A stretch of 64,000 nucleotides of DNA from an uncultured Armatimonadetes bacterium. GTDB taxonomy: Bacteria > Armatimonadota > Hebobacteria > Hebobacterales > Hebobacteraceae. Location: positions 3,833,577 to 3,897,576 of the forward strand of contig OY969415.1 of assembly GCA_963699135.1 (NCBI GenBank), read 5' to 3'. Below, one piece after another: positions 9,834 through 58,600 of this stretch; position 1 is the first letter of the stretch, and every line of letters begins with the position of its first letter. Under the pieces are notes generated by a model that was given only the letters and a program-made list of their open reading frames with translations, was not told the DNA's origin and ran no database searches. Both the position numbers and the translations under genes were made by a program.

Positions 9834-9872
9834 GGGGCAGCGCCGCGCGCTGCCCCGTGGCAGTTTCGCCGT
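9834..9872. repeat. Hairpin repeat, family A, R orientation (TGTCATTGCGAGGGGC...GCCCCGTGGCA)
   Basis: Imperfect palindrome shared with at least 16 other copies in the window. Confidence 0.7.
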
Positions 9873-10086
9873 TTATCCAAGCATCCGGGCCCCACTTCGC
9901 CTCTGCCCCACGCGCGCCCGCCTCGCACTCCACCAACCAGTGGCGTGGGCTTGTGCGCCTCCGGCGCATTCGCCGTGAGCAAGAGCGAGCGGTAACCCGC
10001 GTAGGCACGCTTCGCGTGCCTCTCCCTCCGCCCTGCGCTCACCCGGGTGGGGGGGGAGGGCGTCTTGCACCCCAGTCGCGGCTGCA

Positions 10087-11232
10087 CTACCTCCCGGCCA
10101 CCAACAGATAGCCCCTCTGCGTTAGCACCGTGAAGAGCAAGTGCAGTTGCACGCGCACCTGGTCTCGGATCGGGATGGCCTGCACGGCCTCCGGAGGAGC
10201 CTGCGAGGCTATGTACTGCCAGAACACGTCCTGGAGTGCGTCCGCCTCGCGCCCGTAGCCCTGACGTCGCAACACCCGCACCGCGCAGCATGACACCGCC
10301 AGCGCCTTCGCCCCGTCCTCCGGGCGAAGCTCCTTGGCGTGCCGCGCCTGGCTCCTCGCACTCTCGATGCGCACGACGTCGTCATCCTTGATGAGATCGA
10401 GAAGCTGCAGGTAGTGATCGATCGCGTCGCGCACGGTGGCCTGCTGGGAAGCGGACCAGTCGTGGTCGAGTGCGCTCGTGGAGAGCGCATAGCCGAGCAC
10501 TTCATCGAAGAAGGCAATACAGTCAGGGTTCACCTCGAAAGCGAAGGCGACGCTTCTCCGCGGATCCCGGATCGAGGAGGGAGGTGCGACGGGCTGGTCT
10601 GCGACCGGCATGCCCGTTGATCTCACGAAGGCAAGATGGGCATCCATCAAGCGCTCGTCGATCGCGGACGAGAGGAGGACGTAGTACCCGGGCGCGGGGA
10701 AGTGGCTCTCATCGTGCATGTCGAACAGGACGTCCGGCGCGAGCGCCGTCACGACCCGCGCGCCAGGCCGCCATCTCCGGGCAGGCAGTGGACGCGTTCC
10801 AGTACATGATCCGCTCATAGGGCGGCTCCCAGGACCCTCCGGCGAACACGCGCAGGTCCCCAGGGGCGAGGAACCACTCCTCATTGCGCAACACTCCGTC
10901 CGGATTGATGGTCGGGATAATCGCCCAGTTACACTGGAAGCGCATGACCTGCGGGTTCCGCTGTCGGAGCTGGTCACAGAGCCAGAACATGGTCAACGCG
11001 CAGACCGGCTCAGTTGGGTCCTCAAACCCCCACAGCAGCGCTGTTCTATCGTAGCCGCCATCGAAGCGGATCATGTCGATAGGCAGACCTTCCGCCGACT
11101 GACCGATTGTCTCGACGCTGAAGCCTGGCTGGCCTCGCAGCGCATCTGTCTGCGCCCGGATCTCTGCGAGCGTCAGATACCGCGCATACGTCGGCACAGA
11201 CGCCAGCAGCTCCTGTGGAAGCGCCTGCATGA
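10087..11232 (-). CDS. M14-family zinc carboxypeptidase, interrupted by one frameshift near 10780
   Basis: The N-terminal half (track ORF 10709..11473 frame, from MQALPQELL) contains ...IMYWNASTACPEMAAW. The C-terminal half continues in the 10087..10977 frame (...VLFDMHDESHFPAPGYY...). A 1-nt indel lies in a CGCGCG run. Confidence 0.6.
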
Positions 11233-11319
11233 CATCTCCTAACCGTTCGTTGCTTCGGCAGCTTGCTGCCGAAGCTTTCCCGCTGCCACCCTTTGTCCTC
11301 GCCGTTCCGCCCGCCATCG

Positions 11320-11420
11320 GCGGGCGCCAATCTGCGCAATCTGCGTAATCTGCGGTTACTGCCGTTGCCGTTCCCGCCGAAGGCGGCCCCCCCCTCTCTG
11401 CGCTCTCTGCGTCTCTGCGG
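11320..11420. repeat. Composite repeat, modules C and D, R orientation (GCGCAATCTGCGCAATCTGCGTAATCTGCGGTTACTGCCGTTGCCGTTCC...)
   Basis: Reverse complement of the GGAACGGCAACGGCAGTAACCGCAGATTGCGCAGAT... module found at 33.85, 46.8 and 47.5 kb. Confidence 0.7.
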
Positions 11421-11429
11421 TGAATGCCT

Positions 11430-11906
11430 CTACCCCTCCGCCTCCCCGACCCTCCCCACCAACCCGCTGCCATACAACCACACCGCCACCAACCCGAACC
11501 ACATCAGCGCCACCGGCGCCAGCAGGAATTGATCCACTATCGCCCACGCCAGCGCGAGCGCGCCGCGTCGCATCCCGAAGCGATAGAAGTAGTCCGGTGA
11601 CGGCACCAGCAGCTTGTGCCGCGCGCCGCTGAGCAGCGCCCTCATCCGCGCTCGCTCATGCCCGCCCGACATCGCGATGCAGACCGCGTCGAACCGCATG
11701 CCGCGCAGCCGAAGGAGCCCCTCGCTCCCGAGCGTATGGAAGCTCGCGCCCGGGAACGCGCGCTGTATCGCCCCCAGACACTGCTCGTCGAGGCCGGGGG
11801 TGACCAGGACGCGCAGCACCGGCGGCGTGCCGAGGTCGGCCCCTGTCACCCGCTCGCGGAAGAAGTCCAGCACATACCCGGCGCAGTAGCGCAGCAGGCC
11901 CCTCAT
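11430..11906 (-). CDS. Hypothetical protein, domain-X family member 2 (C-terminal TM helix)
   Basis: MRGLLRYCAGYVLDFF...AIQRAFPGASFHTLGSEG...RGMRFDAVCIAMSGGHERARMRALLSGARHKLL is paralogous to 4520..5038. Its ATG overlaps the probable GT4 stop (ATGA). Confidence 0.5.
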   Translation of the reverse strand: MRGLLRYCAGYVLDFFRERVTGADLGTPPVLRVLVTPGLDEQCLGAIQRAFPGASFHTLGSEGLLRLRGMRFDAVCIAMSGGHERARMRALLSGARHKLLVPSPDYFYRFGMRRGALALAWAIVDQFLLAPVALMWFGLVAVWLYGSGLVGRVGEAEG

Positions 11907-16319: not shown

Positions 16320-16600
16320 CATTGCTGTCATCCCGAGCGACTCGCCACTCCGAGCAGAGCGAGAAGGCGAGTTATGCGAGGGATCAAGACCTGCGGAGCC
16401 GACCGGAGGAAGGCGACTCCCCATTCCCAGGGCAAGAGTCCCTAGGCTGCCATCGGCGGCCGGGATGGCGGCCTGCGAAGCCGGCTTAGCCACTCGTCTC
16501 CTGCCATGGCCTCTGCCGTTTCCGTCCGTAGGGGCGTGATTCATCACGCCCTCCCATCTGTCATTGCGAGGGGCGGCCGCTTCCGCCCCGTGGCAATCTC
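16320..16600. repeat. Composite repeat region in R orientation (TGATCC/CAGGATGACAGCAACGGC module, GGCGTGATTCATCACGCC module, family-A hairpin)
   Basis: Reverse-complement matches to modules present downstream of 21 kb in forward orientation. Confidence 0.55.
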
Positions 16601-16796
16601 GCAGTTCCCTCCGGCGCAGGTGGCCTCTGACTATCCGCGTCCATCACACCCCCACCCTTGTCCGCCCACCAACCACCATGTCCCACTGCCGGCCTTCTTC
16701 CCGGCCGGCCCTCCCACTACCATGGCTCCGGCGTGGGAAGGCGTCACGGAGTCACCCGACAGAGCCGACCCCGCCCAAGTGAGAAAGGGGATCAGA

Positions 16797-17102
16797 ATGA
16801 AGATGCTCATGCACGCCAGGATGCCTCACAAGGAGTTCAACGCCGCCCTCCGTGATGGCACCGCCGAGAAGAAGATGAAGCAGATCCTCGAGGCCACGAA
16901 GCCCGAAGCCGTCTACTTCACCGAGTGGAAAGGCCAGCGCAGCGCCCTCATGATCGTCAACCTGAATGACCCATCAGGGGTGCCCGCGCTCGCCGAGCCG
17001 TGGTTCCTGACCTTCAACGCAGACGTCGAGTTCCACATCGTCATGACCCCGGAAGACCTGGCCAAAGGTGGGCTGGAGGCTCTCGCGAAGAAGTGGGCCT
17101 AG
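16797..17102 (+). CDS. Small conserved hypothetical protein (about 100 aa; DUF3303-like by pattern, uncertain)
   Basis: ATG at 16797 preceded by AAAGGGG. The product is MKMLMHARMPHKEFNAAL...EAVYFTEWKGQRSALMIVNLND...PWFLTFNADVEFHIVMTPEDL. The upstream part of the track ORF lies in repeat DNA and is rejected. Confidence 0.5.
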   Translation: MKMLMHARMPHKEFNAALRDGTAEKKMKQILEATKPEAVYFTEWKGQRSALMIVNLNDPSGVPALAEPWFLTFNADVEFHIVMTPEDLAKGGLEALAKKWA

Positions 17103-17177
17103 CACAGGCCGATCGCACGCCCGAACGGAGCTGACGGGGAGCCACCGACTCCCCTCCCTGCCCACGCGCCGCCCCTC

Positions 17178-17224
17178 CCACTGTCATTGCGAGGGGCGGC
17201 CGCCTTCGCCCCGTGGCAATCCCG
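17178..17224. repeat. Hairpin repeat, family A, R orientation
   Basis: CTGTCATTGCGAGGGGCGGCCGCCTTCGCCCCGTGGCAATCC. Confidence 0.7.
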
Positions 17225-17306
17225 CCGTCGCCGTTCCGCTGCTGAAGCAGCGGAGACGCGCCGCGAAAAGCGGCACGAAAAGTGGCGTTTTCGCAAGAGT
17301 GCACCG

Positions 17307-17324
17307 ATGTTCCACGTGGAACAT
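17307..17324. promoter_or_regulatory. 18-bp perfect palindrome ATGTTCCACGTGGAACAT (candidate operator or recombination site)
   Basis: Exact inverted repeat in a 1.15-kb non-coding region. It is followed by repeated GCATTTCGGGG motifs. Confidence 0.4.
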
Positions 17325-18249
17325 TTCGGGGATTTCCGGGGTGTTCACATTGGCGGAATCGGAGGGTGGGGTGGGAGGCGAGGGAGTGAAGGGGAACTGA
17401 GGGGGCGGAGAGCGGGAATCGGCATAAGTAAGCAAGGCATTTGTAGTACAAGAGGCAAGCTGAAATGGGGTCGATTTCCGTACGCGGGCCTTTTGGCATC
17501 TGCCCTGGAAGGTGGCTAGATGGGCCCAGGAGAGGGAGGGCGAGTTAGGTCCGCGTCGCGAAATGCGCCTATCAGGGTTTTTTCGGGGGAGGGCCGAACT
17601 ATTTCACGTAGGGCAATCCAGGGGGGTCAGAGGGGAAGCTGGGGGCATTTCGGGGTCTGATGGCAGGTGCGCGCAGGGGTGCATAGGGTGCACGAAATGC
17701 GCGGTTCGAGGGGTGGGATTGGGCTGTTTCCGGGGGTTCGGGAGCGTGCATTTCGGGGCTGGAAATGGGCCCGGATCGGGGTGTACTAAGGGGTTAGTAC
17801 AGTGGGTTTGGGCATAGGCATAAGTGGAATGGGGGCGGGAGGACTTCGCTCACGCATCGGCTTCTGTGGCCATGCCCGCGACATGAGAGAAAGAGCTTGC
17901 TGCCTCTGCCCGGATGACTCTGGTTCCGAGTGCTACGGGAATGGAGGCAGTGCCCGCCGTCGATAGCCCGACACAGCGCGGTGTCACTCGCGGGCAGGTC
18001 AGGGCCGAGGATAGGCGGAAGTGATGGCGACATGAGGGATCGTCTGTGGCAGATCATTGGTTGCGCGGCCGTGCTGTCGGGAATCGTACCGCGTAGCGAA
18101 AGCTGCACTTCGGTCAAACTTGCTCCGTCTGACAGCGGCGGCTCCTTCGATCAGTGGCCCAGGACATGGGAGGCGGTGAGCCGCCGGTATGCGCAGCAGG
18201 AGGGCGGCGGGATGCGCGGCTTCCGCGGGCGGGACGATGGGGATGACGC

Positions 18250-19956
18250 ATGACACGGGAGGAGTTGCTTGAGCTGATCGCCAGCGTCCGCCGATATGAG
18301 AGCGAACTTGGCTCCGTAGAAGTGAAGTCTGCTCATCGGGGCACGCCGAAACGCCTCTTCGAACTCCTCTCTGCACTCGCCAACCGCACTGGTGGCGGCG
18401 CTATCCTCTTCGGGCTGGAGGAAAGCACGGACTACCGAGTCGTGGGAGTGGGCGATGCTAGCCGTCTACAAGAGGATGTTGCCAGCATTGCAGCCGAGAT
18501 GGAGCCCCCTCTTCGTCCGGAATTCACGGTTGACGAGGTGGAAGGCCACACTGTCGTCGCAGTGGAAGTGCCAGAGGTGCCCGTGCAGCAGCGCCCCTGC
18601 CACCTCAGGTCCTCTGGCCTACAGAAGGGCTCGTTCATCCGAGTCGGCAATAGCAACCGCTTGATGACCGACTACGAGATTCTTCGGATACATCAGCGCC
18701 CGCATCCAACCCACATATGACGGGGAGGTAGTGAGTGAAGCAACACTTCGAGGACCTAGACGACACGAAGCTGCTCGCGTATCTCAGCGCCCTGAGGCAG
18801 AGCCGCACGGACGCCTCTTACCTTGAGCAGCCGCGGGAACGGGTGCTAATGCAGTTCCGCATCGCAAAGGAAGACGAGGGTGTCCTGCGGCCGACTCTGG
18901 CTGGGTTGCTGGCCTTCGGGAGATATCCGCAGAGCTTCGAGCCGCAGCTCGTTATCACCTACATTCAGTTCTACGGCACGAGCGAAAATGAGAAGACGCC
19001 TCGGGGTGAGCGCTTCCTGGATAGCCGCAAGTTCGAGGGTGCACTGCCAGACCTCGTTGATGCCGCTGTGCGGCACGTCATGGCCAGCCTGCGCAAGAGC
19101 AGTCTGATAGAAGGACTCTACCGAAGAGATATACCAGAGTATCCTGAGGAGGCCGTCCGTGAGGCCGTGGTGAATGCAGTCGTTCACCGCGATTACAGCA
19201 ACTACGTGCGAGGCAGCTATGTCCAGATTCGGCTTTTCGCGGATCGCCTGGAGATCCAGAGCCCGGGTGGCCTCTACGGCAATGTGACCGAGGACACCCT
19301 CGAAATGGAGCACTCGACCCGGAATCGAGTCCTGATGCGATTCCTAGAGGACCTCCGAATCGCAGAGAATCGCGGCAGCGGCATCAGCGCTATGAACCGC
19401 GCCCTGCGCGATGCCAATCTGGAGCCACCCAGGTTCCAGGACAAGAGGAGTTCGTTCTGGGTCACTTTTCGAAGTCACTCGCTGATGAGTCCAGACACCA
19501 TCACGTGGCTCAACCAGTTTGCCGCGCAGCCTCTCAACGACCGCCAGCGACTCACGCTCGCCTACCTCCGTAGCAACGAACAGATCACCAACCCTATCTA
19601 CCGCCAGCTCAACCATGTGGACCCGCTGACCGCTACCAAGGAGCTGCAGGAGCTCGCCAGGACCGGGCTAGTAGAGCAGCACGAAGTGAGGAGATGGGCT
19701 CACTGACGTTCTGAATCCCTTACTTGTCCAGCCTGCGAGGGCAGAGACGCGGACCAATGAGGAGAAGGTTCTGGCATATGTTCAGGAGCATGGTTCCATT
19801 CGCAACCCGGAATGTCGGGATCTGCTGGGCCTACGCAGGCATCAAGCGCGCTTGCTCCTGAAGGGGCTCGTTGAGAAGCGTCTCTTAAGGCGTACGGGAG
19901 AGACGCGCGGCACTCGCTACGTGCTCCCCTATGCCCTGGCCCCGCGGGATAGCTGA
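18250..19956 (+). pseudogene. Fragmented COG2865-type regulator gene (AlbA_2/Schlafen-like N-domain + HATPase_c_4 + C-terminal wHTH), split into three frames
   Basis: Fragment 18250..18720 is an AlbA_2-like domain (frame 1). Fragment 18735..19706 is an HATPase_c_4-like domain (frame 3). Fragment 19732..19956 (frame 1, no start codon) reads EEKVLAYVQEHGSIRNPECRDLLGLRRHQARLLLKGLVEKRLLRRTGETRGTRYVL, the typical wHTH tail of this family. Confidence 0.65.
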
Positions 19957-21240: not shown

Positions 21241-21522
21241 ATGCTGCCCTCTGAGAGGAGTGAGAAGTGGGTGCGGCGCCTGGCCTGGGCCGCATTCATT
21301 TTTGTGATCCTGTACTTGCTCATCTGGATGATCAAGTTCATCGTACCGGTGTTCGGGAATGTGATGAAGCAGCGGGAGCCGCCGCCGGAGGCGCGGGGGA
21401 CGGGAACGGCGGGGAAGGCTGCGAGGATCGTTGCCCGGCACGATTGTGCCGGGCAGAAGCCCGCTGGGGGACAACTGGCCGTTCGTCCCCCAGACCCCCT
21501 CACCGGCTTCTGGCGTTTCTGA
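21241..21522 (+). CDS. Possible small membrane protein whose 3' end runs into repeat family B
   Basis: MLPSERSEKWVRRLAWAAFIFVILYLLIWMIKFIVPVFGNV... has one TM helix. The last 30 codons are encoded by repeat B, so the C-terminus is doubtful. Confidence 0.3.
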   Translation: MLPSERSEKWVRRLAWAAFIFVILYLLIWMIKFIVPVFGNVMKQREPPPEARGTGTAGKAARIVARHDCAGQKPAGGQLAVRPPDPLTGFWRF

Positions 21523-21634
21523 CGAGGGCATGGGGTGGCAGCGGAGGGGATGGCAGGAGCGATTTCCTGCCGAGCGGAGGAACGGCGAGATTGCCACGGG
21601 GCGGCGACTGCGTCGCTGCCCCTCGCGGTGACAG
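21431..21634. repeat. Repeat family B (about 110 bp, two hairpins) followed by a family-A hairpin, + orientation
   Basis: TTGCCCGGCACGATTGTGCCGGGCAGAAGCCCGCTGGGGGACAACTGGCCGTTCGTCCCCCAGACCCCCTCACCGGCTTCTGGCGT...GGGTGGCAGCG, then GAGATTGCCACGGGGCGGCGAC...CCCCTCGCGGTGACAG. Confidence 0.8.
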
Positions 21635-22661: not shown

Positions 22662-22780
22662 CTAGCGGCGGTCCTTCCGCGCGGATAGGGTGGTGCTCGA
22701 CGGAGGGCTTCTTCGATGTGGGGAGGGGGGAATCCTGCGGGGCGCGGGGGGGCAACGGCCGGGAGAACTGCGGGAACCAT

Positions 22781-22950
22781 TGCCCGGCACAATTGTGCCG
22801 GGCAGAAGCTCGCTGGGGGACGACTGGCCGTTCGTCCCCCAGACCCCCGCACCGGCTTCTGGCGTTGCTGACGAGAGCACGCAGTGGTAGCGAGGGAAAC
22901 GGCAACGCCGAGATTGCCACGGGGCGGCGACGGCCGCCCCTCGCAGTGAC
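22781..22950. repeat. Repeat family B + family A hairpin, + orientation
   Basis: Same modules as at 21431, 95% identical over the B core. Confidence 0.8.
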
Positions 22951-23025
22951 AGGTTTGGGCGGCGACAGGAATGTGGGGGCGGCGGCGTAATATCAGAGCC
23001 AGATGCTGGGAGGAGGAGAGTGGGA

Positions 23026-23531: not shown

Positions 23532-23534
23532 GGA

Positions 23535-23885
23535 GGCGGCATTCACCGCAGAGACGCAGATGACGCAGAGAGCGGAAAGGCGTGATCCCTCGCTTCGCTC
23601 AGGATGACAACAGGGAGGGAGTGGCAGGACCGAGGTCCTGCCGAACGGGAGGAAGGGGAGAGGCACGCCGGGGACGGACGCGAGGAACGAGCACCGAGAT
23701 TGCCACGGGGCGGCGACTCTGTCGCTGCCCATCGCAATGACAGATAGCAGTGAGTGGCAGGAGCACGGGATGAATCCCGTCCCTGCGGGGGCATCGGCGA
23801 CAGGCTACCGAAGGAACCAACACCGAGATTGCCACGCGCGCCTCGGCTCCGGTCGGAGCCGAGGCGGCTCGCAATGACAGAGCGA
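23535..23885. repeat. Composite mosaic repeat array (modules C, TGATCC/CAGGATGACA, F, A, A-variant)
   Basis: Non-coding. Contains CGCAGAGACGCAGATGACGCAGAG, GGCAGGACCGAGGTCCTGCC, GAGATTGCCACGGGGCGGCGAC...GCAATGACAG, and a long-stem variant GCCTCGGCTCCGGTCGGAGCCGAGGC. Confidence 0.75.
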
Positions 23886-25720: not shown

Positions 25721-25729
25721 GGGGGGGGA

Positions 25730-25996
25730 CGGCAACGGCTTCCGCGGTAGAGGCGCAGAGGGCGCAGAGGAACGGCGGTACGACTGGCACCTATTGCCCG
25801 GCACGATTGTGCCGGGCAGAAGCCCGCTGGGGGACGACTGGCCGTTCGTCCCCCAGACCCCCTCACCGGCTTTGGGCGTCCTGACGAGAGCATGAGGTGG
25901 CAGCGAGGGAGTGGCCAGCGGCTTGCGGCAGGGCCTGCCAGATGGCGGAACACCGAGATTGCCACGGGGCGGCAACGGCCGCCCCTCGCAATGACA
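25730..25996. repeat. Composite repeat (module C, family B, family A), + orientation
   Basis: GAGGCGCAGAGGGCGCAGAGG, then TTGCCCGGCACGATTGTGCCGGGCAG..., then GAGATTGCCACGGGGCGGCAACGGCCGCCCCTCGCAATGACAG. Confidence 0.8.
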
Positions 25997-26105
25997 GCTG
26001 GGGCTCTGACTTTGGTGTCGTAATGGCCTGTGGGGGCGCGACTTCCGCTACTGGCTGGTGTCAAATCGCTCGGAAGTTGAGCGTTAGACGCCCGCGAGGG
26101 TAGCA

Positions 26106-31689: not shown

Positions 31690-31925
31690 TGGTCCGGGGG
31701 CGGACGCGAGGAACGAACACCGAGATTGCCACAGGGCGGCGACTCTGTCGCTGCCCCTCGCAATGACAGTGGGGGAGGGAGTGGCAGGACCGAGGTCCTG
31801 CCGAACGGGGGAAGGGGAGAGGCACGCCGGGGGCGGACGCGAGGAACGAACACCGAGATTCCCGCTAGAGGCGGGCAAGGCCACGGGGCGGCGACTCTGT
31901 CGCTGCCCCTCGCAATGACAGTGGT
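31690..31925. repeat. Composite repeat (module F + family A, twice), + orientation
   Basis: GGCGGACGCGAGGAACGAACACCGAGATTGCCAC...GCAATGACAGTG occurs twice, separated by GGGAGTGGCAGGACCGAGGTCCTGCCGAACGGG. Confidence 0.8.
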
Positions 31926-33434: not shown

Positions 33435-33753
33435 TCTGTCGGGTGAGCACTATCAGGTCTTCGATATGGATCGAGGTAAGCTCGCGCTGGAGCTGATCGC
33501 GGTGGAACGGCCGGACGTCGTGCTGCTCGATATCAGCATGCCCGAGATCGGCGGGATCCCGGTGTGCACGGAGATCAAGCGGAACCCGGCGACGACGGAG
33601 GTGAGGATCATCATCGTGAGCGCGCACTGCGGGAGTGACTTCATCGCGGAATGCTTGAGCGCGGGCGCGGATGATTATGTCACGAAGCCGTTCCAGCCGG
33701 ATGAGCTGGCGCGACGCGTGAGGAAGGTGCTGGCCGAGGCGGTGATGGCGTAG
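33370..33753 (+). CDS. Single-domain response regulator (CheY-like receiver)
   Basis: RIMIVDDDP...DVVLLDISMPEIGG...IIIVSAH...KPF (receiver-domain motifs D-D-K). It overlaps the kinase 3' end. Confidence 0.85.
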   Translation: MARIMIVDDDPFARRLMRDSLDLSGEHYQVFDMDRGKLALELIAVERPDVVLLDISMPEIGGIPVCTEIKRNPATTEVRIIIVSAHCGSDFIAECLSAGADDYVTKPFQPDELARRVRKVLAEAVMA

Positions 33754-33759
33754 GGGGTA

Positions 33760-34390
33760 TCCACCGCAGAGACGCAGAGGGAATGGCAAGGCGCGATCCC
33801 CGCCGGAGGCGGGCAAGTTTCGCTGTGCTCAGGATGAGAGCAACGGCGGAACGGCAACGGCAGTAACCGCAGATTGCGCACCCTCCTCACGGCCGGCGGG
33901 CAGGGATTGCGCAGATTAGGCCCGCCTACCGGCGGGCGAACGGCAACGACGAAGCACCGCGGGGCAGCGACTGTGTCGCTGCCCTTCGCAATGGCAACGG
34001 GAGGAGGGAGGGCGTGATGAATCACGCCCCTACGGGAGGGGCTTCGGCAGTAGAACTACCGAAGCAACGGGAAACCCCCTCACCGGCTCTTAGCGTCCTG
34101 GCGAGAGCATTGGGTGGCAGCGGCGGGAGGGAGTGGCAGGAGGCAAGCTCCTGCCCAACGGGGAGACGGCGGGATTGCCACGCGCGCCTCGGCTCCAGTC
34201 GGAGCCGAGGCGACTCGCAATGACAGTGAGGGAGGAAGTGGCAGGACCGAGGTCCTGCCGAACGGGAGGAGGGAGGGCGTGATGAATCACGCCCCTACGG
34301 GAGGGGCTTCGGCAGTAGAACTACCGAAGCAACGGGAACGGCGAGATTGCCACGGGGCGGCAACGGCCGCCCCTCGCAATGACGGCAGGA
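33760..34390. repeat. Longest composite mosaic repeat array, about 630 bp (modules C, D, A-variants, B-tail, F, G x2)
   Basis: Non-coding. It contains two copies of GGGCGTGATGAATCACGCCCCTACGGGAGGGGCTTCGGCAGTAGAACTACCGAAGCAACGGGAA (module G), the hairpin GCCTCGGCTCCAGTCGGAGCCGAGGC, and two family-A hairpins. Confidence 0.8.
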
Positions 34391-34927: not shown

Positions 34928-34928
34928 G

Positions 34929-37904: not shown

Positions 37905-38297
37905 AAATCATCATCCGCAGATGGCGCAGATTACGCGGATTGGTGCCCGCTGACGCGGGCGGAACGGCATTCACCGCAGAGGCGCCCGCCTACGCCAAGG
38001 TCGCCTGAGGCGACTGAAGCTTCGGCGGGCGGGCTCCGGGCGCGGAGAAGGTAAGCCGCCTTCGGCGGAGGGAACGACGAGATTGCCACGGGGCGGCAAC
38101 GGCCGCCCCTCGCAATGGCAGGCAGGGACGTAGTGGCAGGAGCAAGTCGCCGGAGACGACCAAGGCTTCTGCCAAACGGGAGGAGGGCGCAATGAATTGC
38201 GCCCCTACAGGCTGGGGGAGAGGCGCGTTGGGCGCGGGAGCAGATACCGAGATTGCCACGGGGCAGCGCCTGTGTCGCTGCCCCTCGCAATGACATC
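37905..38297. repeat. Composite mosaic repeat array (modules C/D, G-variant, two family-A hairpins)
   Basis: ATCATCCGCAGATGGCGCAGATTACGCGGATTGG..., GGCGCAATGAATTGCGCC, and GAGATTGCCACGGGGCGGCAACGGCCGCCCCTCGCAATGGCAG. Confidence 0.75.
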
Positions 38298-39524: not shown

Positions 39525-39780
39525 GAGGAACGGCAACGGCGATCATCCGCAGATGGCGCAGAGGACGCAGAGGGATGGCGGTACGGCTGGCACCCATTGC
39601 CCGGCACGATTGTGCCGGGCAGAAGTCCGCTGGGGGCGACTGGCCGTTCGTCCCCCAGACCCCCTCACCGGCTTCTGGCGTCCTGGCGAAAGCACGGGGT
39701 GGCAGCGGGGGAAAACGAAGCCACGGACGGTGACAAACACCGAGATCACCACGGGGCGGTGACGGAGCCGCACGACGCGA
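39525..39780. repeat. Composite repeat (module C + family B + degenerate A), + orientation
   Basis: GGAACGGCAACGGCGATCATCCGCAGATGGCGCAGAGGACGCAGAGGG, then TTGCCCGGCACGATTGTGCCGGGCAG.... Confidence 0.8.
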
Positions 39781-39798
39781 TGGCCGTGAAGTACAACG

Positions 39799-41262: not shown

Positions 41263-41269
41263 GGGGGGG

Positions 41270-41413
41270 GGGGGCGGCATTCGCCGCAAAGGCGCAGAGG
41301 GCGCAGAGAACGGCGAAGGCGTGATCCTTCGCTGCGCTCAGGATGACAGCAACGGCGGAACGGCGACGACGAGATTGCCACGGGGCGGCGACGGCCGCCC
41401 CTCGCAATGACAG
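41270..41413. repeat. Composite repeat (module C, TGATCC/CAGGATGACAGCAACGGC module, family A)
   Basis: GCGCAGAGGGCGCAGAG ... GTGATCCTTCGCTGCGCTCAGGATGACAGCAACGGCGGAACGGCGACGAC GAGATTGCCACGGGGCGGCGACGGCCGCCCCTCGCAATGACAG. Confidence 0.8.
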
Positions 41414-44516: not shown

Positions 44517-45931
44517 ATGAAGAAGGTGAAGATCGGGTTCATCCCCTCGCACCGGATGCCGTTCGGCGAGCAAGTGGGCGGTGGAGATGCGGGCGCGCTG
44601 TCTGAAGGCGATGAAGAAGGTCCCCGGGGCGGAGATCGTCGTGCCCGACGACAAGCTCACGTTCAAGGGCGTGGTGCGCAACCTGGAGGACGCGAAGAAG
44701 ACGCTGGCAGCTCTTCCAGGAGCAAGGACGTGACGGGCGTGATCGTGGGCGGGATGACCTTCGGGCAGGAGGTCTCGGCGGTCGGCGTGATCATCGCGGG
44801 GCTGCCGAAGGGCGACGCCGGTGCTGCACTTCGCCACGAAGGGGCAGGTGGACCCGGACGGGACGCGCCCTTCCGACTCGTGGTGCGGGCAGTTCATGAT
44901 CGCATCGGCGATGAAGCGGCGAGAGATCCCGTTCGAGCACATCCCGACCTGCTTCCCGGAGGAGCCGGTGTTCGAGCAGGCGGTGTCGCGCTTCACGCGC
45001 GCCTGCGCGGCGCACGAAGGTGTTCCGCGGCAGCGCGCATCGGGCAGCTCGGCGTGCGACCGGAGGAGTTCGAGTCGGTGTGGTGGGACGAGGCGTCGCT
45101 GCAGCGCGACTTCAACCAGACGGTGGTCCCGATCGACCTGGCCGACATCTTCATGCGCCTGGACGAGGTGCGGCGCGAACGACGCCGAGGTGAAGAAGGT
45201 CGCGCGGAAGATCATCGGCCGGGGCCAAGATCGCCGGCGGAGGCGAAGGAGTTCGTGACGCACGCTCGCCCGGATGGAAGTGGCGATGCTGCGCCTGGCG
45301 CAGGAGAAAGAACCTGGACGCGCTGGCGGTGAACTGCTGGGAGCAGGTCCAGAAGCGCTATGGCATCTGCGTCTGCTCGGTGCTGGGCCGGCTGACCGAT
45401 CAGGGCCTGCCTGTGCGCGTGCGAGGTGGACGTCTACGGCGCGGCGACACATGCTGGCCGCGTTCGGCGCGAGCCTGGGCAAGACGCCGCCGCACTTCAT
45501 CGACTGGACCGAACTGCACCCGACGAAGGAGAACGTGTGGCTGGCCTGGCACTGCGGCAATGCCCCGCCGAGCCTCGTGCGCGCAGGCGACTGCGACGTC
45601 GTGCATCAGCAGCACAGCATCATCCCGCGCCGGCCGGCCTGGGGGACGCGCGAGTTCCGGCTGAAGACCGGCCCGGTGACCTGCTGCCGACTGGTGGAGT
45701 ACGATGGCGTGGTTCACGATGTTCATCGGCAGCGGCGAGGTCGTGGACATGACGCCCAACGTCCGCGGGTCGTACGGCTGGGTGAAGGTGAAGGACGTGA
45801 TGGATTGGGAGCAGAAGATGGTCGAGCACGGGATCATCCATCACGGGGTGCTGATCCACGACCCGGAGGTGGCGGACGCGCTGGAGAGTTTCTGCAAGTT
45901 CAATGGAATCGATGTGGTGAGGGGGGCGTAG
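44517..45931 (+). pseudogene. L-arabinose/L-fucose isomerase-family protein (COG2407-type) disrupted by many frameshifts
   Basis: MKKVKIGFIPSHRMPFGEQ..., ...MTFGQEVSAVGVIIAGLPK, ...WCGQFMIASAMKRREIPFEHIPTCFPEEPVFEQAVSRFTRACAAHEG..., ...RVVRLVEYDGVVH..., ...GSGEVVDMTPNVRGSYGWVKVKDVMDWEQKMVEHGIIHHGVLIHDPEVADALESFCKFNGIDVVRGA. The segments are distributed over several frames. RBS GGAGAAATAGG. Confidence 0.65.
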
Positions 45932-45955
45932 GAGTACGGCAGTACGGCTAGCACT

Positions 45956-46065
45956 GACTGCCCGGCACAATTGTGCCGGGCAGAAGCCCGCTGGGGGACG
46001 ACTGGCCGTTCGTCCCCCAGACCCCCTCCCCGCCTTCTGGCGTTCTGACGATAGCGCGGGGTGGC
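45956..46065. repeat. Repeat family B, + orientation
   Basis: TGCCCGGCACAATTGTGCCGGGCAGAAGCCCGCTGGGGGACGACTGGCCGTTCGTCCCCCAGACCCCCTCCCCGCCTTCTGGCGT...GGGTGGCAGCGACAGG. Confidence 0.8.
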
Positions 46066-46128
46066 AGCGACAGGCCCTGCTTGTTGGCGGCCGGTTGGTG
46101 TGCTAGACTCAGGGTGAGGGAAGCGACC

Positions 46129-46810: not shown

Positions 46811-47044
46811 CGGCGGGAACGGCAACGGCAGTAACCGCAGATTGCGCAGATGACGCAGATTGGCGCCCGCCTAACGGCGGGCGGAACGGCAACGACGTGA
46901 TCCTTCGCTGCGCTCAGGATGACAGCAACGGCACACGGCCCCACCCCTGCTGCGCAGGGGTAGGCTACTGGCTGAGGATGACAGTAGTGGGGGCGAACAC
47001 CGAGATTGCCACGGGGCAGCGACGCGGTCGCTGCCCCTCGCAAT
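46811..47044. repeat. Composite repeat (modules D, TGATCC/CAGGATGACAGCAACGGC, E and family A); left copy of a direct-repeat pair flanking 47135..47407
   Basis: GGAACGGCAACGGCAGTAACCGCAGATTGCGCAGATGACGCAGATTGGCGCCCGCCTAACGGCGGGCG...GTGATCCTTCGCTGCGCTCAGGATGACAGCAACGGC...GGCCCCACCCCTGCTGCGCAGGGGTAGGCTACTGGC...GAGATTGCCACGGGGCAGCGACGCGGTCGCTGCCCCTCGCAATGACAG. Confidence 0.8.
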
Positions 47045-47134
47045 GACAGCAGGAGAGCTACTTGCGCGGGACGACGTTGCTGGTGACGGGTGGGCCGCCG
47101 AAACGCGAAGGGATTCCACGCAGGGAGGACTTGA

Positions 47135-47407: not shown

Positions 47408-47454
47408 AGGGGATGATTAGCCGCCGATGAACGCCGATGGACGCAGATGAGGGG

Positions 47455-47625
47455 AGGCCGCCTTCGGCGGAGGAACGGCAGCGACAGTAACCGCAGATTG
47501 CGCAGATTACGCAGATGCAGCGGGCGAACGGATGCCCGCCGCGGGAAGGCGTGATCCCTCGGCTTCGCCTCAGGATGACAGCAACGGCCCCACCCCTGCT
47601 GCGCAGGGGTAGGCTACTGGCGCTA
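47455..47625. repeat. Composite repeat (modules D, TGATCC/CAGGATGACAGCAACGGC, E); right copy of the direct-repeat pair
   Basis: GGAACGGCAGCGACAGTAACCGCAGATTGCGCAGATTACGCAGATGCAGCGGGCG...GTGATCCCTCGGCTTCGCCTCAGGATGACAGCAACGGCCCCACCCCTGCTGCGCAGGGGTAGGCTACTGGC. It ends at the stop codon of the metallopeptidase gene. Confidence 0.8.
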
Positions 47626-48014: not shown

Positions 48015-48185
48015 GGGTCCTGAGGCGCAGAGGACGGCGGGACGGCTGCACTTATTGCCCGGCACAATTGTGCCGGGCAGAAGTCCGCTGGGGGACGACT
48101 GGCCGTTCGTCCCCCAGACCCCCTCGCCGGCTTCTGGCCTCCTGGCGAAAGCGCGGGGTGGCAGCGGAGTATGGAGGGGAGCCGA
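48015..48185. repeat. Composite repeat (module C + family B), + orientation
   Basis: GAGGCGCAGAGGACGGCGGGACGGCTGCACTTATTGCCCGGCACAATTGTGCCGGGCAGAAGTCCGCTGGGGGACGACTGGCCGTTCGTCCCCC.... Confidence 0.8.
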
Positions 48186-56231: not shown

Positions 56232-57531
56232 GAAGAGCGTAGACCGGCAGATACCCGGCCCAGAGGAGGGTGTGGTGCACGGGGATGTTGCCGGGGTAGA
56301 GCCAGCGAATGTAGTATTGAAGCGAGAGGGTGAGGGTGAGGAGCAGCCATCCCGGGACGGACCACCAGCAGAGCAGGGGAGTGGTCCAGATGCCGTACCA
56401 GGGCATGGTGGGGGCGCCGAGGAGAAGCTGGGCGCAGATGGTGGTGAAGGTGGCGCCCATCAGCCACTCCAGGCCGGGCTGCTGACGCCAGACGAGCCAG
56501 GCGACGAGGGTGAGGAGGGCGATGGTCGTCAGGCCGCGGGCGATGGCGAAGTGGTACTCGGTGATCGGGGTCAGATGCCAGTTGATGAGGAAGAAGATGC
56601 TGCTGTTCGTCTCCCAATGGCCTATGAACTCGGAGAGGCCGGTGAAGAGGCGGCGGCCGATGCCGACGTAGGGCACGAGCAGGAGAAGGCAGGCGAGGCC
56701 GAACCAGGCCAGCGCTCTGACCCCACCGCGCTTGATGAAGAACGGCAGCGCGGGAAGCGCGAATCCCTTGGCCAGCACTGCTCCGGCAAAGGTGACGGCG
56801 GAGGCGGCGCGCACTTGGGAGTCGCGGCGGGCAGCGAACCAGAAGGCGAGCAGCAGCAGAAGCAACCCGAAGCAGTCCACATGCAGGCCGATGGCCGCTT
56901 CCGTGACCGGCAGGGGACACCAGGCATACCAGATGACGCGCTCGGGCGGGCGGCCGGTCTTGCGCAGCAGGGCGATGAGGAGCAGGACGCTCGCCAGATC
57001 GCAAGCCACGAAGACCCAGCGGAACAGCTCAGGGTCAGCGGGGTGGAGGCGGGCGATCCCGGCGAACAGCAACTCGGCCGACGGGGGGTAGATGGTCGGG
57101 ACTTCCTTGTGCCAGATCTGCTCCCAGCTCGCGTCTCGCAGGTGGCTTAGCTCGGGGGCGTTGGGGGGGTAGAGGTAGGGGTTGACGCCGGAGTTGCTGA
57201 CCCGGCCGTCCCAGAGGTAGCGCCAGTAGTCGGTGGTGAGGGGAAGGCGCGTTTCGAGGGCGACGATGCGGAGGCCGAGGGCGGCGACCACGATCCAGAC
57301 CAACCACCAGCGAGGCGCGTTCCTCACGCGCGCGACGATGAGCGCGGCGGGGAGATAGCAGAACCAGGCGAGCGCATAGGCGCGAACAAACGCGGACGCC
57401 CATTCGCCGTGGCCGGCAGTATGAAGGGCGGCGGCGGAGGCGAGGCCGAGGGCGATCAGCGCGAGGCCGGCCGCGAGCAGCGGCCAGCCTGCGCGGGCAC
57501 GCGAAGCAACACCCCCGGCCGCCGGCGACAT
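56167..57531 (-). CDS. DUF2029-family integral membrane protein (GT87/PMT-like polyprenol-sugar-dependent glycosyltransferase fold)
   Basis: 454 aa with about 12 TM helices. The N-terminal loop ...TTDYWRYLWDGR...GVNPYLYPP is typical of DUF2029 mannosyltransferase-like proteins. Convergent overlap with the DUF547 3' end. Confidence 0.6.
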   Translation of the reverse strand: MSPAAGGVASRARAGWPLLAAGLALIALGLASAAALHTAGHGEWASAFVRAYALAWFCYLPAALIVARVRNAPRWWLVWIVVAALGLRIVALETRLPLTTDYWRYLWDGRVSNSGVNPYLYPPNAPELSHLRDASWEQIWHKEVPTIYPPSAELLFAGIARLHPADPELFRWVFVACDLASVLLLIALLRKTGRPPERVIWYAWCPLPVTEAAIGLHVDCFGLLLLLLAFWFAARRDSQVRAASAVTFAGAVLAKGFALPALPFFIKRGGVRALAWFGLACLLLLVPYVGIGRRLFTGLSEFIGHWETNSSIFFLINWHLTPITEYHFAIARGLTTIALLTLVAWLVWRQQPGLEWLMGATFTTICAQLLLGAPTMPWYGIWTTPLLCWWSVPGWLLLTLTLSLQYYIRWLYPGNIPVHHTLLWAGYLPVYALLIAQFLWWRLRSRRSAPSHTA

Positions 57532-57532
57532 G

Positions 57533-58390
57533 CTAGCGACTCGACCGCCCGCGTTCGGCCTTAGTCTTGAGCGGTTGGGCTGACCTGATGTAGAACTCGG
57601 TTTGGAGCTTGAGGGTGGTGGTATCCTTCTTCACCGCCTGGTAGACCTTCACCAGACCGCGGATGTGGGCCTCGAGCTGGAGCTGGCCCATCTCGGCGGT
57701 GGCGGTGGCGGGATCCCCCGCGAAGTGGTTGGGGTAGTTGGCGTACCAGAACATACCGGTGTGGAAGGGAACGCCGGCGAGGCGCTTCCGGGGCAGGCCG
57801 CTCTCGGAGGCGGCCTTCTCCATCTGCACCAGGTCGGGCCGAATGGCGAGCATGCCAGCGGTCTCGGGCTCACAGGCATGGCCTCCCCAGTCGGTCTTGC
57901 GCAGCTTTCGCACCTGCTCCATGAGCTTCGGGTCGGACTCCGGGTGGGCGATGTAGACGGCGTAGTCGCGGGGCGAGGAGAGCTGGGTGAGGCAGAAGAA
58001 GGGCAGCCAGTCGTTGTTGCCGCCGTGACCGTTCACGATGAGGATCTTCTCGAAGCCGTTGCGAGCGATGGTCTCGCAGACCGCCTGCAGCAGTTGGCTC
58101 AGCAGCTCGGGCGGGATGGTGACGCAGCCGGGCTGATGGCGGGCCTCGTAGATCTGGCCGAAGTAGTAGTGGGGGAAGACCACGGCGTACTCCCTCTGGG
58201 CAGCGCCGATGGAAGCGGCCCGGGCGGCCATGACGTCAGTGCCCAGCGGAAGATGGGGGCCGTGCTTCTCGATCACGCCGATGGGCAGGACGCAGACGCG
58301 CTTGGCGCGGGCCACGGCGCCGGGAAAATCGGAGGCGGTCAGCTCCTCCCACTGCACCGATAGGGACTTCGATGGGGATTTCGCTCTCAT
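57533..58390 (-). CDS. Creatininase (creatinine amidohydrolase) family protein
   Basis: VLPIGVIEKHGPHLPLGTD...IVNGHGGN...HACEPETA are metal-binding motifs of the creatininase family. Confidence 0.8.
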   Translation of the reverse strand: MRAKSPSKSLSVQWEELTASDFPGAVARAKRVCVLPIGVIEKHGPHLPLGTDVMAARAASIGAAQREYAVVFPHYYFGQIYEARHQPGCVTIPPELLSQLLQAVCETIARNGFEKILIVNGHGGNNDWLPFFCLTQLSSPRDYAVYIAHPESDPKLMEQVRKLRKTDWGGHACEPETAGMLAIRPDLVQMEKAASESGLPRKRLAGVPFHTGMFWYANYPNHFAGDPATATAEMGQLQLEAHIRGLVKVYQAVKKDTTTLKLQTEFYIRSAQPLKTKAERGRSSR

Positions 58391-58482
58391 GGTCACACTC
58401 CTTGACCCAGAGAGTTAGCGAAGGCGCGGGGGGATTCCTTTCGGGGGGGGAGGGAGGGAGGGAACGGCAACGGCGGCACGGC

Positions 58483-58600
58483 GGTTGCCCGGCACGATTG
58501 TGCCGGGCAGGAGCCCGCTGGGGGACGACTGGCCGTTCGTCCCCCAGACCCCCTCACCGGCTTCTAGCGTCCTGGCGATAGCTTTGGGTGGCAGCGGAAA
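58483..58600. repeat. Repeat family B, + orientation
   Basis: TTGCCCGGCACGATTGTGCCGGGCAGGAGCCCGCTGGGGGACGACTGGCCGTTCGTCCCCCAGACCCCCTCACCGGCTTCTAGCGT...GGGTGGCAGCGG. Confidence 0.8.

Follow-up and report, generated by a model that had tools for sequence, protein, structure and literature searches.

Mosaic hairpin repeats in an Armatimonadota-like chromosome form head-to-tail arrays whose strand follows GC skew

The stretch of DNA analyzed here, 64 kb long and referred to as the window, belongs to an Armatimonadota-like chromosome. It contains 18 mapped arrays of intergenic repeats, amounting to about 4.5 kb or 7.0% of the window (Table 1), which bears out the ‘several percent’ estimated in a sequence-only reading of the same DNA. 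Together the arrays hold about 18 family-A hairpins, seven near-identical B units, modules C to G, and modules H (CCCGCYNGAGGCGGGCAAG) and J (CCCACGCCACTGGYCGG...); a further hairpin is designated G2. The sequence-only reading had described a dense mosaic after 21 kb, and arrays do make up 12.9% of the segment from 21 to 48.2 kb, but none lies at 48.2–58.4 kb or past 58.7 kb, because long intergenic gaps are nearly lacking there. Four of the arrays lie left of 17.3 kb, all on the minus strand, and the accompanying flip of strand had been missed. At 42.8–45.9 kb the window is frameshifted relative to intact orthologues, and some sequence errors are possible.

Table 1. Positions of repeat arrays, family-A copies and the skew switch in the window.
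Feature	Position	Strand	Remarks
J-A-F array	9785..9960	-	A copy GAAACTGCCACGGGGCAGCGCGCGGCGCTGCCCCTCGCAATGACAG at 9822-9867
C5/C array (CGCAGAKNN units), small hairpins, H-type and G2-like hairpins	11262..11440	-	starts directly past a minus-strand gene's stop codon
A (16558-16600), G (16533-16550, GTAG-type) ... D (16326-16338)	16326..16610	-	
Lone A copy	17172..17235	-	last minus-oriented module; at cumulative GC-skew minimum
GC-skew sign switch	17000..17400	.	cumulative G-C minimum ~17.2 kb; module orientation flips
B, F-like hairpin, A	21385..21634	+	
B-A	22734..22952	+	divergent intergenic region: MoxR gene -, nitroreductase +
C5/C, D, F, A (long stem), G-like hairpin, A (cargo type 3, 23825-23878)	23534..23880	+	
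C, B, A (short stem)	25724..25997	+	
A, F, A	31694..31925	+	second A split by H, 31861-31879 (GAGATT/CCCGCTAGAGGCGGGCAAG/GCCACGG)
Largest array: C, D (H nested 33800-33818), C, H, degenerate A, G, G2, 3' third of B, F-like, A (type 3), F, G, G2, A	33752..34385	+	78-nt segment twice at 100% identity (33996-34073, 34261-34338); sigma-70-like promoter just past the array (34399-34427)
C, H-like hairpins, A, F-like, G-like (GGGCGCAATGAATTGCGCCCCTAC), A	37905..38296	+	between convergent stop codons; matching gap 11 bp in relative L112
C, B, decayed A	39530..39790	+	between two minus-strand genes; antisense to both
C5/C, D, A	41263..41413	+	between conserved terminator hairpin and rubredoxin promoter; absent in L112
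Solitary B unit	45912..46082	+	
C, H, D, E, D-like, A	46812..47049	+	downstream of tRNA-Arg
C, hairpins, C, D, E	47420..47620	+	orthologous gap of L119 (~90% relative): C5-B-J-A instead
Solitary B unit	48040..48175	+	between two minus-strand genes; relative L117 there: B-G'-J-A
B, then decayed J and decayed A right arm (..TTGGAATGACG)	58440..58720	+	relative L122: B and intact A
A copies (n=15)	21587, 22910, 23696, 23825, 25955, 31722, 31855, 33955, 34171, 34343, 38079, 38249, 39742, 41371, 47002	+	both arms, degenerate copies included
A copies (n=3)	9822-9867, 16558-16600, 17181-17223	-	

The arrays are head-to-tail, never inverted pairs, and their modules keep a fixed order: C leads, D or B follows, J or F comes next and A closes the array, at times with G after it. 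G-runs such as GGGGAGGGAGGGAGGG serve as spacers. Most arrays start only a few bases past a stop codon and end ahead of the next promoter, many of them beginning 1–10 nt 3′ of the stop codon of a co-oriented gene. For this reason many arrays are probably transcribed as 3′ UTRs, this being a consequence and not what determines their orientation. The array of about 630 bp noticed in the sequence-only reading is real and includes the perfect 78-nt duplication.

The left arm of family A (GAGATTGCCACGGGGCGGCGAC) is matched 12 times when up to 3 mismatches are allowed, where shuffles predict 0.01; with both arms considered and degenerate copies taken in, the count is about 18, 15 on the plus and three on the minus strand, where ‘at least 17’ had been claimed. 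The family-B palindrome gave seven matches, all on the plus strand, against 0 expected, and its core of about 110 nt is almost invariant, as the claim of seven near-identical copies of about 110 bp had it. The remaining modules of that reading, C to G, are likewise all present. RNA and DNA folds of the hairpins returned z = -2.5 to -5.7; D folded alone forms no stable hairpin (z = 0.2). With H, J and G2, the modules number more than the seven first listed.

The modules are hairpins whose stems are kept by compensatory changes. In A a foot of 5 bp leads through an internal loop (CAC/TC) to a distal stem of 8–12 bp, 41–54 nt in total, and this frame hosts at least four different inner stems. Double compensatory changes occur at four base pairs of the A stems, and 98.3% of cells are paired, a value reached by 0 of 500 shuffles. 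Stem intermediates with G·T and with A·C on the G-rich strand are about equally common, which favors neither strand as the active one. One module can nest in another, and does so at a fixed position, H following GAT(T/C) in an A frame, in a D frame and once more in L115. When recurrent composite arrays from different loci are aligned, they share a right end at ..GCAATGACAG, and similarity is lost past ..AATGACA(G), a sharp right boundary. The individual hairpins are tagged as well, with [GC]AACGG after F and H in 8/8 cases and CTACGG/CTACAG after G in 4/4. Among the roughly 18 A copies, right ends are mostly ..GCAATGACAG or ..GACAT (TGTC on the other strand), with a minority of one ..GACGG (CGTC) and two ..ATGGC; D ends in ..GGATGACAG. 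The stem feet, ATTGC/GCAAT in A and ATCCT/AGGAT in D, are paired in the folds. All four copies of G read GGGCGTGATGAATCACGCCC followed by CTAC, and are thus GTAG-tagged on the other strand.

These repeats are of the known REP/BIME/NIME kind. The BIME/REP-type mosaic seen by the sequence-only reading is supported by tagged, intergenic, multi-copy hairpins that the orthologous gaps of a more distant relative lack; its verdict that the modules were unrecognized holds in part, since A, C, D and G are recognizable whereas B and F look lineage-restricted. A REP super-family with CGTC/TGTC tags, to which Neisseria dRS3 and Rickettsia RPE-4 and RPE-6 belong, has been described (Di Nocera et al., 2013; PMC3733652). 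It is defined by an unpaired CGTC tag at one hairpin end, with TGTC or CCTC allowed, and by a stem that opens with complementary A-T and T-A pairs; stems are 8–9 bp and loops 4–5 nt, the untagged end has a 3-nt unpaired tail of consensus CCA, units are mostly head-to-head dimers, and CGTC-type REPs were reported without a dedicated transposase (PMC3733652). A and D fit this super-family in tag and stem start: their C-rich strand reads TGTC (or CGTC) and then a stem starting A-T, T-A (ATTGC.../ATCCT...). They also bear a short unpaired tail after the stem, and are multi-copy, intergenic, present in many phyla and without an adjoining transposase. They depart from it in the bipartite A stem, where the conserved internal loop separates the 5-bp foot from an exchangeable 8–12-bp distal stem, and in having one orientation tied to GC skew in place of head-to-head dimers. 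At its untagged end A has a conserved unpaired triplet, reading CTC (GAG on the G-rich strand) where the super-family consensus is CCA.

Since they lack inverted REP pairs, the arrays resemble Neisseria NIMEs more than E. coli BIMEs in their architecture; no inverted module pair was found in the window or in 25 related contigs, where 259 of 261 module hits keep a single orientation per contig. In NIMEs, CGTC-type hairpins punctuate many 20–200-bp repeat families in long intergenic arrays (Bentley et al., 2007; PMC1797815), and position is kept while content differs between strains; they were reported as Neisseria-specific, with one 20-bp dRS3 inverted repeat as the building unit, whose copies flank RS segments (PMC1797815). 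The arrays described here are likewise long, intergenic and hairpin-punctuated, with syntenic position kept while content differs. Unlike NIMEs, for which neither strand polarity nor a fixed module order is described (PMC1797815), they mix several tag classes in the order C ... A, in an Armatimonadota-like host, and their punctuating hairpins are related to dRS3 (ATTCCC-N8-GGGAAT) in frame (ATTGC...GCAAT) but are 41–54 nt long and are not dRS3. With the REPs, BIMEs and REPINs of E. coli and Pseudomonas that are linked to RAYT (TnpA-REP) they have in common imperfect hairpins that carry tags, clustering into mosaics, and covariation within the stems. With its GTAG 5′ of the hairpin foot, G would class as a GTAG-tagged REP on its tag, as in RAYT-linked REPs, for which the same single-stranded DNA mechanism is proposed (PMC3333891; PMC6006769). 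The BIME or REPIN unit, however, is an inverted REP pair with a linker, neither PMC3333891 nor PMC6006769 describes a replication polarity of BIMEs, and the scanned window ORFs include no RAYT gene.

Several modules are also found elsewhere: many IMG/VR viral contigs contain A, C, D and G, the A frame is present in distant phyla, and inverted pairs of the A frame exist in viral and rumen contigs. In viral contigs C (TTCACCGCAGAGRCGCAGAG...) forms the two inverted ends of small MITE-like units of 80–170 bp and is their terminal inverted repeat. In the window and its ~90%-identical relative, C was seen on one side only, as a block of single orientation with which arrays open at their 5′ end; unlike MITEs, the arrays run from C to A, with unrelated ends, and neither an inverted C partner nor a target duplication was evident.

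The arrays are lineage-specific insertions with quick turnover between relatives. The same modules recur on 25 independently assembled JGI metagenome contigs of the ~90%-identical relative, and an assembly artefact is thereby excluded. Orthologous gaps of this relative hold different module sets at conserved array positions. In the more distant relative, L112, orthologous gaps have no modules and measure 11, 74 and 70 bp, against 407, 350 and 608 bp in the window. No target-site rule or duplication could be extracted from these filled and empty sites, whose boundaries are ragged. Small genes that lie between arrays, one encoding DUF5661 and one a weakly aspartyl-protease-like ORF, have no counterpart in L112.

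All modules lie on the G-rich strand, whatever the direction of neighboring genes. In the window every module left of 17.3 kb is on the minus strand and every one right of 21 kb on the plus strand, and the switch coincides with the cumulative GC-skew minimum at 17.2 kb. Across the window and the 25 contigs of the ~90% relative, orientation matches the local masked skew in 77 of 78 arrays and in 259 of 261 module hits; some contigs overlap, so the independent number of arrays is lower than 78. The skew itself is independent of transcription: on the right side it is, on the plus strand, +0.18 in minus-strand genes versus +0.20 in plus-strand genes. Of the 78 arrays, 27 are co-oriented with both flanking genes, 19 have an antisense gene upstream and 4 are antisense to both neighbors. 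In the right part 14/14 arrays are plus-oriented, with p ~0.003 if orientation followed transcription (~66% of genes being leading-strand). Strand asymmetry of this kind usually reflects replication direction. Judging from skew alone, the switch at 17.2 kb may be a replication origin; no DnaA-box cluster or origin-linked gene was found near it.

A Pfam scan of 60 window ORFs, the longer or coding-like ones, found no transposase or recombinase, in line with the earlier claim that none is present, and gave no Y1_Tnp match and no IS or phage genes. Approximate IS200 and RAYT queries, a weak probe, retrieved nothing by tblastn from all fetched DNA (the 64-kb window and about 140 kb of related contigs). 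Against Rfam only two tRNAs passed, with nothing in the arrays at E ≤ 1. Between 21 and 41 kb there were 4 terminator-like sites (GC-rich hairpin plus T-run) against 5.9 expected, none inside an array.

How, then, did the arrays arise? That they are artefactual, or ordinary IS or prophage pieces at one or two copies genome-wide, has practically no chance of being true: the frameshifted stretch could be cited for it, but recurrence on the independent contigs has already refuted an artefact, and dozens of copies lie within 64 kb whose scanned ORFs hold no IS or phage genes. It is conceivable, if rather unlikely, that a recombinase, site-specific or encoded by a phage (one of the IS110 family, say, as for Neisseria dRS3), acts at the tagged hairpins, and that recombination with other arrays or incoming DNA, not single-unit transposition, is the main way in which arrays grow and change. 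Wholesale differences between syntenic arrays of ~90% relatives at kept positions, as in NIMEs (PMC1797815), would follow, and the viral occurrences of A, C, D and G, the 78-nt duplication and the small genes missing from L112 also fit. Recombination by itself, however, explains neither the G-rich-strand location of every module nor the precise nesting of the 19-nt hairpin at equivalent positions in two frames, and the scanned ORFs yielded no recombinase gene.

We consider it improbable that the arrays are kept for a role in RNA, as 3′-UTR stabilizers, terminators or translation modulators whose orientation is set by transcription of the gene they serve. REPs are known to stabilize mRNA and affect translation (cited in PMC6006769 and PMC3733652), and the placement just past co-oriented stop codons and before promoters, together with the 27 arrays co-oriented with both neighbors, agrees with such a role. 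Yet the skew is obeyed even where the upstream gene or both flanks are antisense, as in the window at 39.5 and 48.1 kb (between minus-strand genes) and 22.7 kb (divergent); at 21–41 kb no T-run terminator coincides with an array and such sites are no more frequent than expected, and no Rfam family matches. Selection on polarity, with G-rich arrays acting as polar chromosome signals (KOPS- or Chi-like) or one orientation harming replication through G-quadruplexes or hairpins, is very improbable. The strict tie to skew and G-run spacers such as GGGGAGGGAGGGAGGG point that way, but composition alone makes any G-rich word polar when the skew is 0.2, the hairpins are almost symmetric, evidence for a specific conserved 8-mer is lacking, and module syntax, nesting and turnover are left unexplained.

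The explanation we favor, with modest confidence, is that these are non-autonomous elements of REP type, which spread through a strand-specific process coupled to replication and are reshuffled by recombination. The set comprises the short tagged hairpins A, D, F, G and H, the 110-nt multi-hairpin B and the tandem 9-mers of C. A trans-acting enzyme, for which a Y1 HUH transposase (RAYT or IS200/IS605 type) and other strand-specific recombinases are candidates, would copy and insert units by acting on one DNA strand at the replication fork. It would recognize the hairpin foot together with the unpaired tag, which reads ..ACGG/..ACAG on the G-rich strand and is of CGT type on its complement. Local duplication, along with ectopic recombination or gene conversion, would then reshuffle the arrays. 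Against this reading count the lack of a transposase or recombinase among the 60 scanned ORFs, the reported absence of a dedicated transposase for CGTC-type REPs (PMC3733652) and the failure to extract a target-site rule. Y1 transposases use tagged hairpins in single-stranded DNA of the lagging-strand template (PMC3333891; PMC6006769), and replication-oriented bias is known for the IS200, IS200/IS605 and IS607 families (PMC3971601). Like the IS200/IS605 family and its transposase-less derivatives, the arrays have two different end hairpins, no terminal inverted repeats, no evident target duplication and a replication-related orientation bias (PMC3971601). They differ in being variable mosaics and not a fixed element, in having no demonstrated sequence relation to any IS, and in a polarity that is near-absolute where that of the family is a statistical bias. 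Because every unit has a single orientation and is not an inverted pair, replication polarity would be imprinted on the whole population.

Newly seen here are the fixed-order head-to-tail arrays, nested insertions, compensatory stem changes and wholesale turnover between relatives, and above all the strict strand polarity following GC skew, which is the most unusual property of these repeats. Their skew-tied single orientation hints at how such repeats spread.

The dense mosaic of hairpin modules described in the sequence-only reading was confirmed, and its counts held. Reading the intergenic DNA and scanning with both arms gave about 18 copies of family A where at least 17 had been claimed, the left arm matching at 12 sites with ≤3 mismatches where shuffled sequence would give 0.01, and the palindrome of family B matched at all seven proposed copies with none expected. 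An independent repeat finder recovered the same families, and modules C (tandem CGCAGAKNN blocks), D, E, F and G were all present, together with three that the earlier list had lacked: H (a CCCGCY-NGA-GGCGGG+CAAG hairpin), G2 (the hairpin next after G) and J (a segment of about 100 nt beginning CCCACGCCACTGGYCGG). The modules form 18 arrays, or head-to-tail intergenic clusters, that span about 4.5 kb or 7.0% of the window, in line with the "several percent" first estimated, and 12.9% of the stretch from 21 to 48.2 kb. An assembly artefact, raised at the outset as a possible cause, is contradicted by 25 contigs from JGI metagenomes of the Ga0315273-Ga0315289 series that bear the same modules; these were retrieved with a 25-mer from B, and their coding DNA is about 90% identical to that of the window (hereafter the ~90% relative). 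Several array starts hold G12 homopolymers and G-run blocks such as GGGGGGGGAGGGAGGGAGGG, potential G-quadruplex motifs that are invariably on the G-rich strand (minus to the left and plus to the right of the skew switch described below), with the proviso that their homopolymer lengths may not be accurate should the assembly derive from long reads.

The surrounding DNA is ordinary chromosome. Beyond a polysaccharide glycosyltransferase cluster lie housekeeping and metabolic genes and two tRNAs, and the Fe-alcohol dehydrogenase has named homologues from Armatimonadota. As had been claimed of transposases and IS elements, no transposase was found among the 60 longer or coding-like ORFs scanned, nor any integrase or phage gene. 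A CRISPR or integron cassette array was considered and rejected on sequence anatomy, since a regular repeat-spacer period and attC core sites are both lacking; nor did any scanned ORF match cas or intI. The fucose isomerase and FGGY-kinase genes are split into several frames in the window and intact in two relatives (L134 and the more distant syntenic L112); they are either real pseudogenes or local assembly indel errors. A candidate small RNA gene, whose terminator is a GC hairpin with a T-run, has no Rfam match. Its 3′ ~73 nt are identical in L112, where the flanks are only about 75% identical, and its C-runs complement the G-runs with which the repeat arrays are filled.

Array orientation follows GC skew almost without exception. 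Left of 16 kb the plus strand has a skew of about −0.19, and right of 20 kb one of about +0.19; the cumulative curve reaches its minimum at 17.2 kb. Every module before 17.3 kb lies on the minus strand and every module beyond 21 kb on the plus strand. Across the window and the 25 related contigs, some of which overlap so that the independent count is below 78, orientation agreed with the local skew sign, computed with arrays masked, in 77 of 78 arrays and 259 of 261 module hits. The sole disagreeing array sits at the skew switch, where skew is about 0. In the right part of the window, skew was +0.18 over eleven minus-strand genes and +0.20 over plus-strand genes; it is thus independent of transcription, the pattern expected of replication-associated skew. 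With composition-based gene calls on the related contigs, the upstream gene was antisense to the array in 19 cases, and both neighbours were antisense in four. Arrays antisense to their neighbours include those at 39.5 and 48.1 kb of the window. The switch may be either a replication origin, for which the skew itself is the evidence, or a rearrangement boundary; a search for a DnaA-box cluster there found none. It adjoins a stretch of lower GC (59-63%) that holds a split Schlafen-type gene. In L112 GC skew is nearly nil (0.03), and the same genes in the window (36087-47865) show +0.15 to +0.2. Every repeat module is likewise missing from L112, so that strong skew goes together with polar arrays in one lineage, and one underlying replication change could account for both.

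The modules are structured units. Family A is a bipartite hairpin. An unpaired GAG precedes the 5-bp foot (ATTGC), which a conserved internal loop (CAC/TC) separates from a distal stem-loop; GCAAT then closes the foot, and GACAG after it is unpaired. Folded as DNA, the hairpin has an energy of −14.5 to −15.3 kcal/mol (z about −4). Within this invariant frame sit at least four unrelated versions of the distal stem. Across nine copies of a single version, double compensatory changes occur at four base pairs, and 98.3% of cells are paired, a value reached by 0 of 500 shuffles. The D frame (GATCC...GGATGACAG) is of the same kind, D alone not being stable, and modules F, G, G2, H and E each form a simple hairpin rich in GC, with z between −2.8 and −5.5. 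Module B, of about 110 nt, comprises two strong hairpins and a weaker third domain; it is nearly invariant across 26 distinct copies, and covariation is uninformative there because the stems do not vary. A self-cleaving ribozyme in B was suggested by a CTGACGAG motif and rejected, as the motif varies between copies (CTGGCGAA and others) and Rfam finds nothing in B. No module matched an Rfam family, and no T-run terminator coincided with an array.

The hairpins also carry short conserved tags. Read on the G-rich strand, F and H are followed 3′ by [GC]AACGG (8/8 cases), G by CTACGG or CTACAG (4/4), and A and D by ..ATGACAG; on the opposite strand these appear at the 5′ foot as GTTC/GTTG, GTAG and TGTC, respectively. 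All tag classes (TGTC/CGTC, GTAG and GTTC/GTTG) have a common ..ACGG/..ACAG 3′ flank on the G-rich strand.

Arrays obey a head-to-tail syntax in which C5/C opens the array, D or B comes next, J or F third and A after that, with a G behind it in some cases. In composite B-x-J-A arrays from different loci, similarity ends directly after ..AATGACA(G). The 19-nt H hairpin is found nested in an A frame and in a D frame, and the H-interrupted A form appears again, at another locus, in the ~90% relative (L115). In the largest array, a 78-nt F-G-G2 segment is duplicated with 100% identity. Array content turns over quickly, and orthologous gaps hold different arrays in the window and the ~90% relative; three gaps that measure 407, 350 and 608 bp in the window are 11, 74 and 70 bp long in L112, at ~76-81% nucleotide identity. 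The window-relative junctions (L112 and the ~90% relative) showed neither target duplication nor a clean target motif. A small zinc-ribbon/TPR gene shared by the window and L112 is replaced by an array in the ~90% relative, a replacement that is consistent with array-mediated deletion. Two further small genes lie between arrays around tRNA-Arg, one weakly aspartyl-protease-like and one encoding DUF5661. Both are missing from the corresponding L112 gaps, and the DUF5661 gene is array-flanked in the ~90% relative too (L119).

Features of the window in window positions, with the corresponding content of the ~90% relative
Position	Feature	Strand	In the window	In the ~90% relative
up to ~16 kb	polysaccharide glycosyltransferase cluster	minus		
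17172-17235	last minus-oriented A	minus	at skew switch	
18250-19706	split Schlafen AlbA_2/HATPase_c_4 gene		within lower-GC stretch, 16-20 kb	
31861-31879	nested H hairpin		in A frame, after GAGATT	
33800-33818	nested H hairpin		in D frame, after GCGATCC	
37.3-38.3 kb	orthologous gap		small TPR gene between repeats	C-H-C-D-A array, no gene
37516-37900	small zinc-ribbon/TPR gene		present	array (L137 3048-3262)
41110-41262	candidate small RNA gene		TTGACA-17-TATACT promoter (41110-41138), C-rich body CCCCACCCCAAACCCCACCCCACC, terminator	
41260-41275, 58440-58475, others	G-run blocks		at array starts	
42800-45930	fucose isomerase and FGGY-kinase genes		split into several frames	
46100-46488, 47135-47407	two small genes around tRNA-Arg		between arrays	
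47.4 kb	orthologous gap		C-D-E	C5-B-J-A
48.1 kb	orthologous gap		B alone	B-G'-J-A
58.6 kb	orthologous gap		B + decayed J-A	B + intact A

Few non-coding repeats in bacteria are as abundant as REPs. Two super-families are told apart by their unpaired tag, GTAG in one and CGTC in the other, TGTC and CCTC being accepted variants. In CGTC repeats the stem is 8-9 bp long and "almost invariably" begins with A-T and T-A, the loop has 4-5 nt and the tail 3 nt; most form head-to-head dimers, they occur in five phyla, and they have no associated transposase, none dedicated to their spread having been found (Di Nocera et al., PMC3733652). Modules A and D share the tag and the A-T start of this class but differ from it in size and in not forming dimers, and G carries the GTAG tag of the other. 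The nearest architectural match is the NIMEs, mosaic arrays of stable position and variable content that are punctuated by the Neisseria dRS3 repeat (ATTCCC-N8-GGGAAT), a member of the CGTC class (PMC1797815); NIMEs are described as Neisseria-specific, and neither polarity nor module order is reported for them. The likeness to BIME/REP elements proposed earlier holds up, as a REP/NIME-like mosaic; the inverted pairs on which BIMEs and REPINs are built are absent here. Of the modules, which the earlier reading did not recognise, A, D and G fit known super-families; they sit among lineage-specific modules. No published description of these modules, or of arrays like these in Armatimonadota, was found, and literature searches by sequence string for A, D and C returned unrelated primer matches or nothing.

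Some of the modules are cosmopolitan. MAGs and genomes that carry the full A frame (GAGATTGCCACG...CTCGCAATGAC) bear the labels Ruminococcus, Dehalococcoidia, Atribacterota, Fibrobacter, Brocadiales, Alphaproteobacteria and Thioalkalivibrio, among others; as we estimate about 280 chance matches for a 16-mer scan of that collection, only the ~30 matches with a complete hairpin frame were used. Among contigs classed as viral by IMG/VR, which may include prophage or host DNA, the 23-base A frame was found on at least 120 (34-67% GC, often as inverted pairs), the D frame on 96, the C5 block on 49, as inverted ends of 80-170-bp MITE-like units, and G on 16; B and F were found on none. The inverted ends of the MITE-like units (L355, L356, L359, L367, L371, L390 and L398) consist of TTCACCGCAGAG and then two to three CGCAGAGNN units, the same block that opens the window arrays, and the units often lie just 3′ of a stop codon. 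Several rumen Clostridiales/Ruminococcus MAGs carry, on many contigs, a conserved composite of about 75 nt (L003, L004, L006, L008, L011, L020 and others), made of GGTTGAGATTGCCACGGGGCGCATTTCAGATT and then an inverted full A-type hairpin ending ...GGCAATCTCAACC. No protein family recurred beside the A frame across taxa (43 genome and 120 viral loci), the exception being structural genes of phages on a single group of related viral contigs (L191, L201, L214, L149, L166 and others; ~53% GC), where several A-frame hairpins (GAGATTGCCACGCTYCGCTCGCAATGAC) sit between portal-like and other structural-looking genes. A GIY-YIG-like ORF beside one hairpin (L019) was a single case and was taken as coincidence. 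The same short frames on many putative phage contigs and in distant phyla suggest a route for distribution across phyla.

What is unusual in this mosaic is its near-absolute GC-skew polarity, its head-to-tail syntax and its mixing of lineage-specific modules with cosmopolitan ones that are also on putative phage contigs. Transcription does not explain the polarity, because the skew is transcription-independent and arrays follow it even beside antisense genes, and neither does composition alone, because the hairpins are nearly strand-symmetric. What is needed is a process, either of placing or of filtering, by which the two strands are told apart at the fork. A replication-oriented bias is known for the IS200, IS200/IS605 and IS607 families, where it is explained by single-stranded DNA transposition at the fork (PMC3971601, PMC3333891, PMC6006769). 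A recombinase acting alone, in the manner proposed for NIMEs, would account for the turnover of arrays but leaves their polarity unexplained. Many arrays lie between a stop codon and the next promoter, a position that makes an RNA function plausible for them, but such a function does not set their orientation.

The favoured explanation, held with moderate confidence, is that REP-type units are mobilised in trans as single strands and that the arrays are later reshuffled by recombination and duplication. Such mobilisation would fit the tagged hairpins with their structure-preserving stem variation, the nested insertion at a fixed position and the sharp right end, as well as the absence of inverted repeats and of evident target duplication. 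The fuller reading, that the arrays record strand-specific, fork-coupled insertion acting on several REP tag classes at once, with the cosmopolitan A, C, D and G supplied across phyla by phages, is a tentative one that we consider rather unlikely. Polarity leaves the kind of the mosaic unchanged, as it is still REP-type junk or regulatory DNA.

Were the arrays a product of fork-coupled insertion, this lineage would be a natural system in which to identify the missing mobilisation machinery of the "orphan" CGTC-type REPs. That CGTC-type, GTAG-type and lineage-specific modules are all strand-locked to GC skew is a directional clue, one suggesting that the placing or filtering process sees the replication fork. 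Since arrays differ between relatives that are ~90% identical, the process must be recent, and population data could capture it under way; together these observations make the mechanism of REP spread testable.
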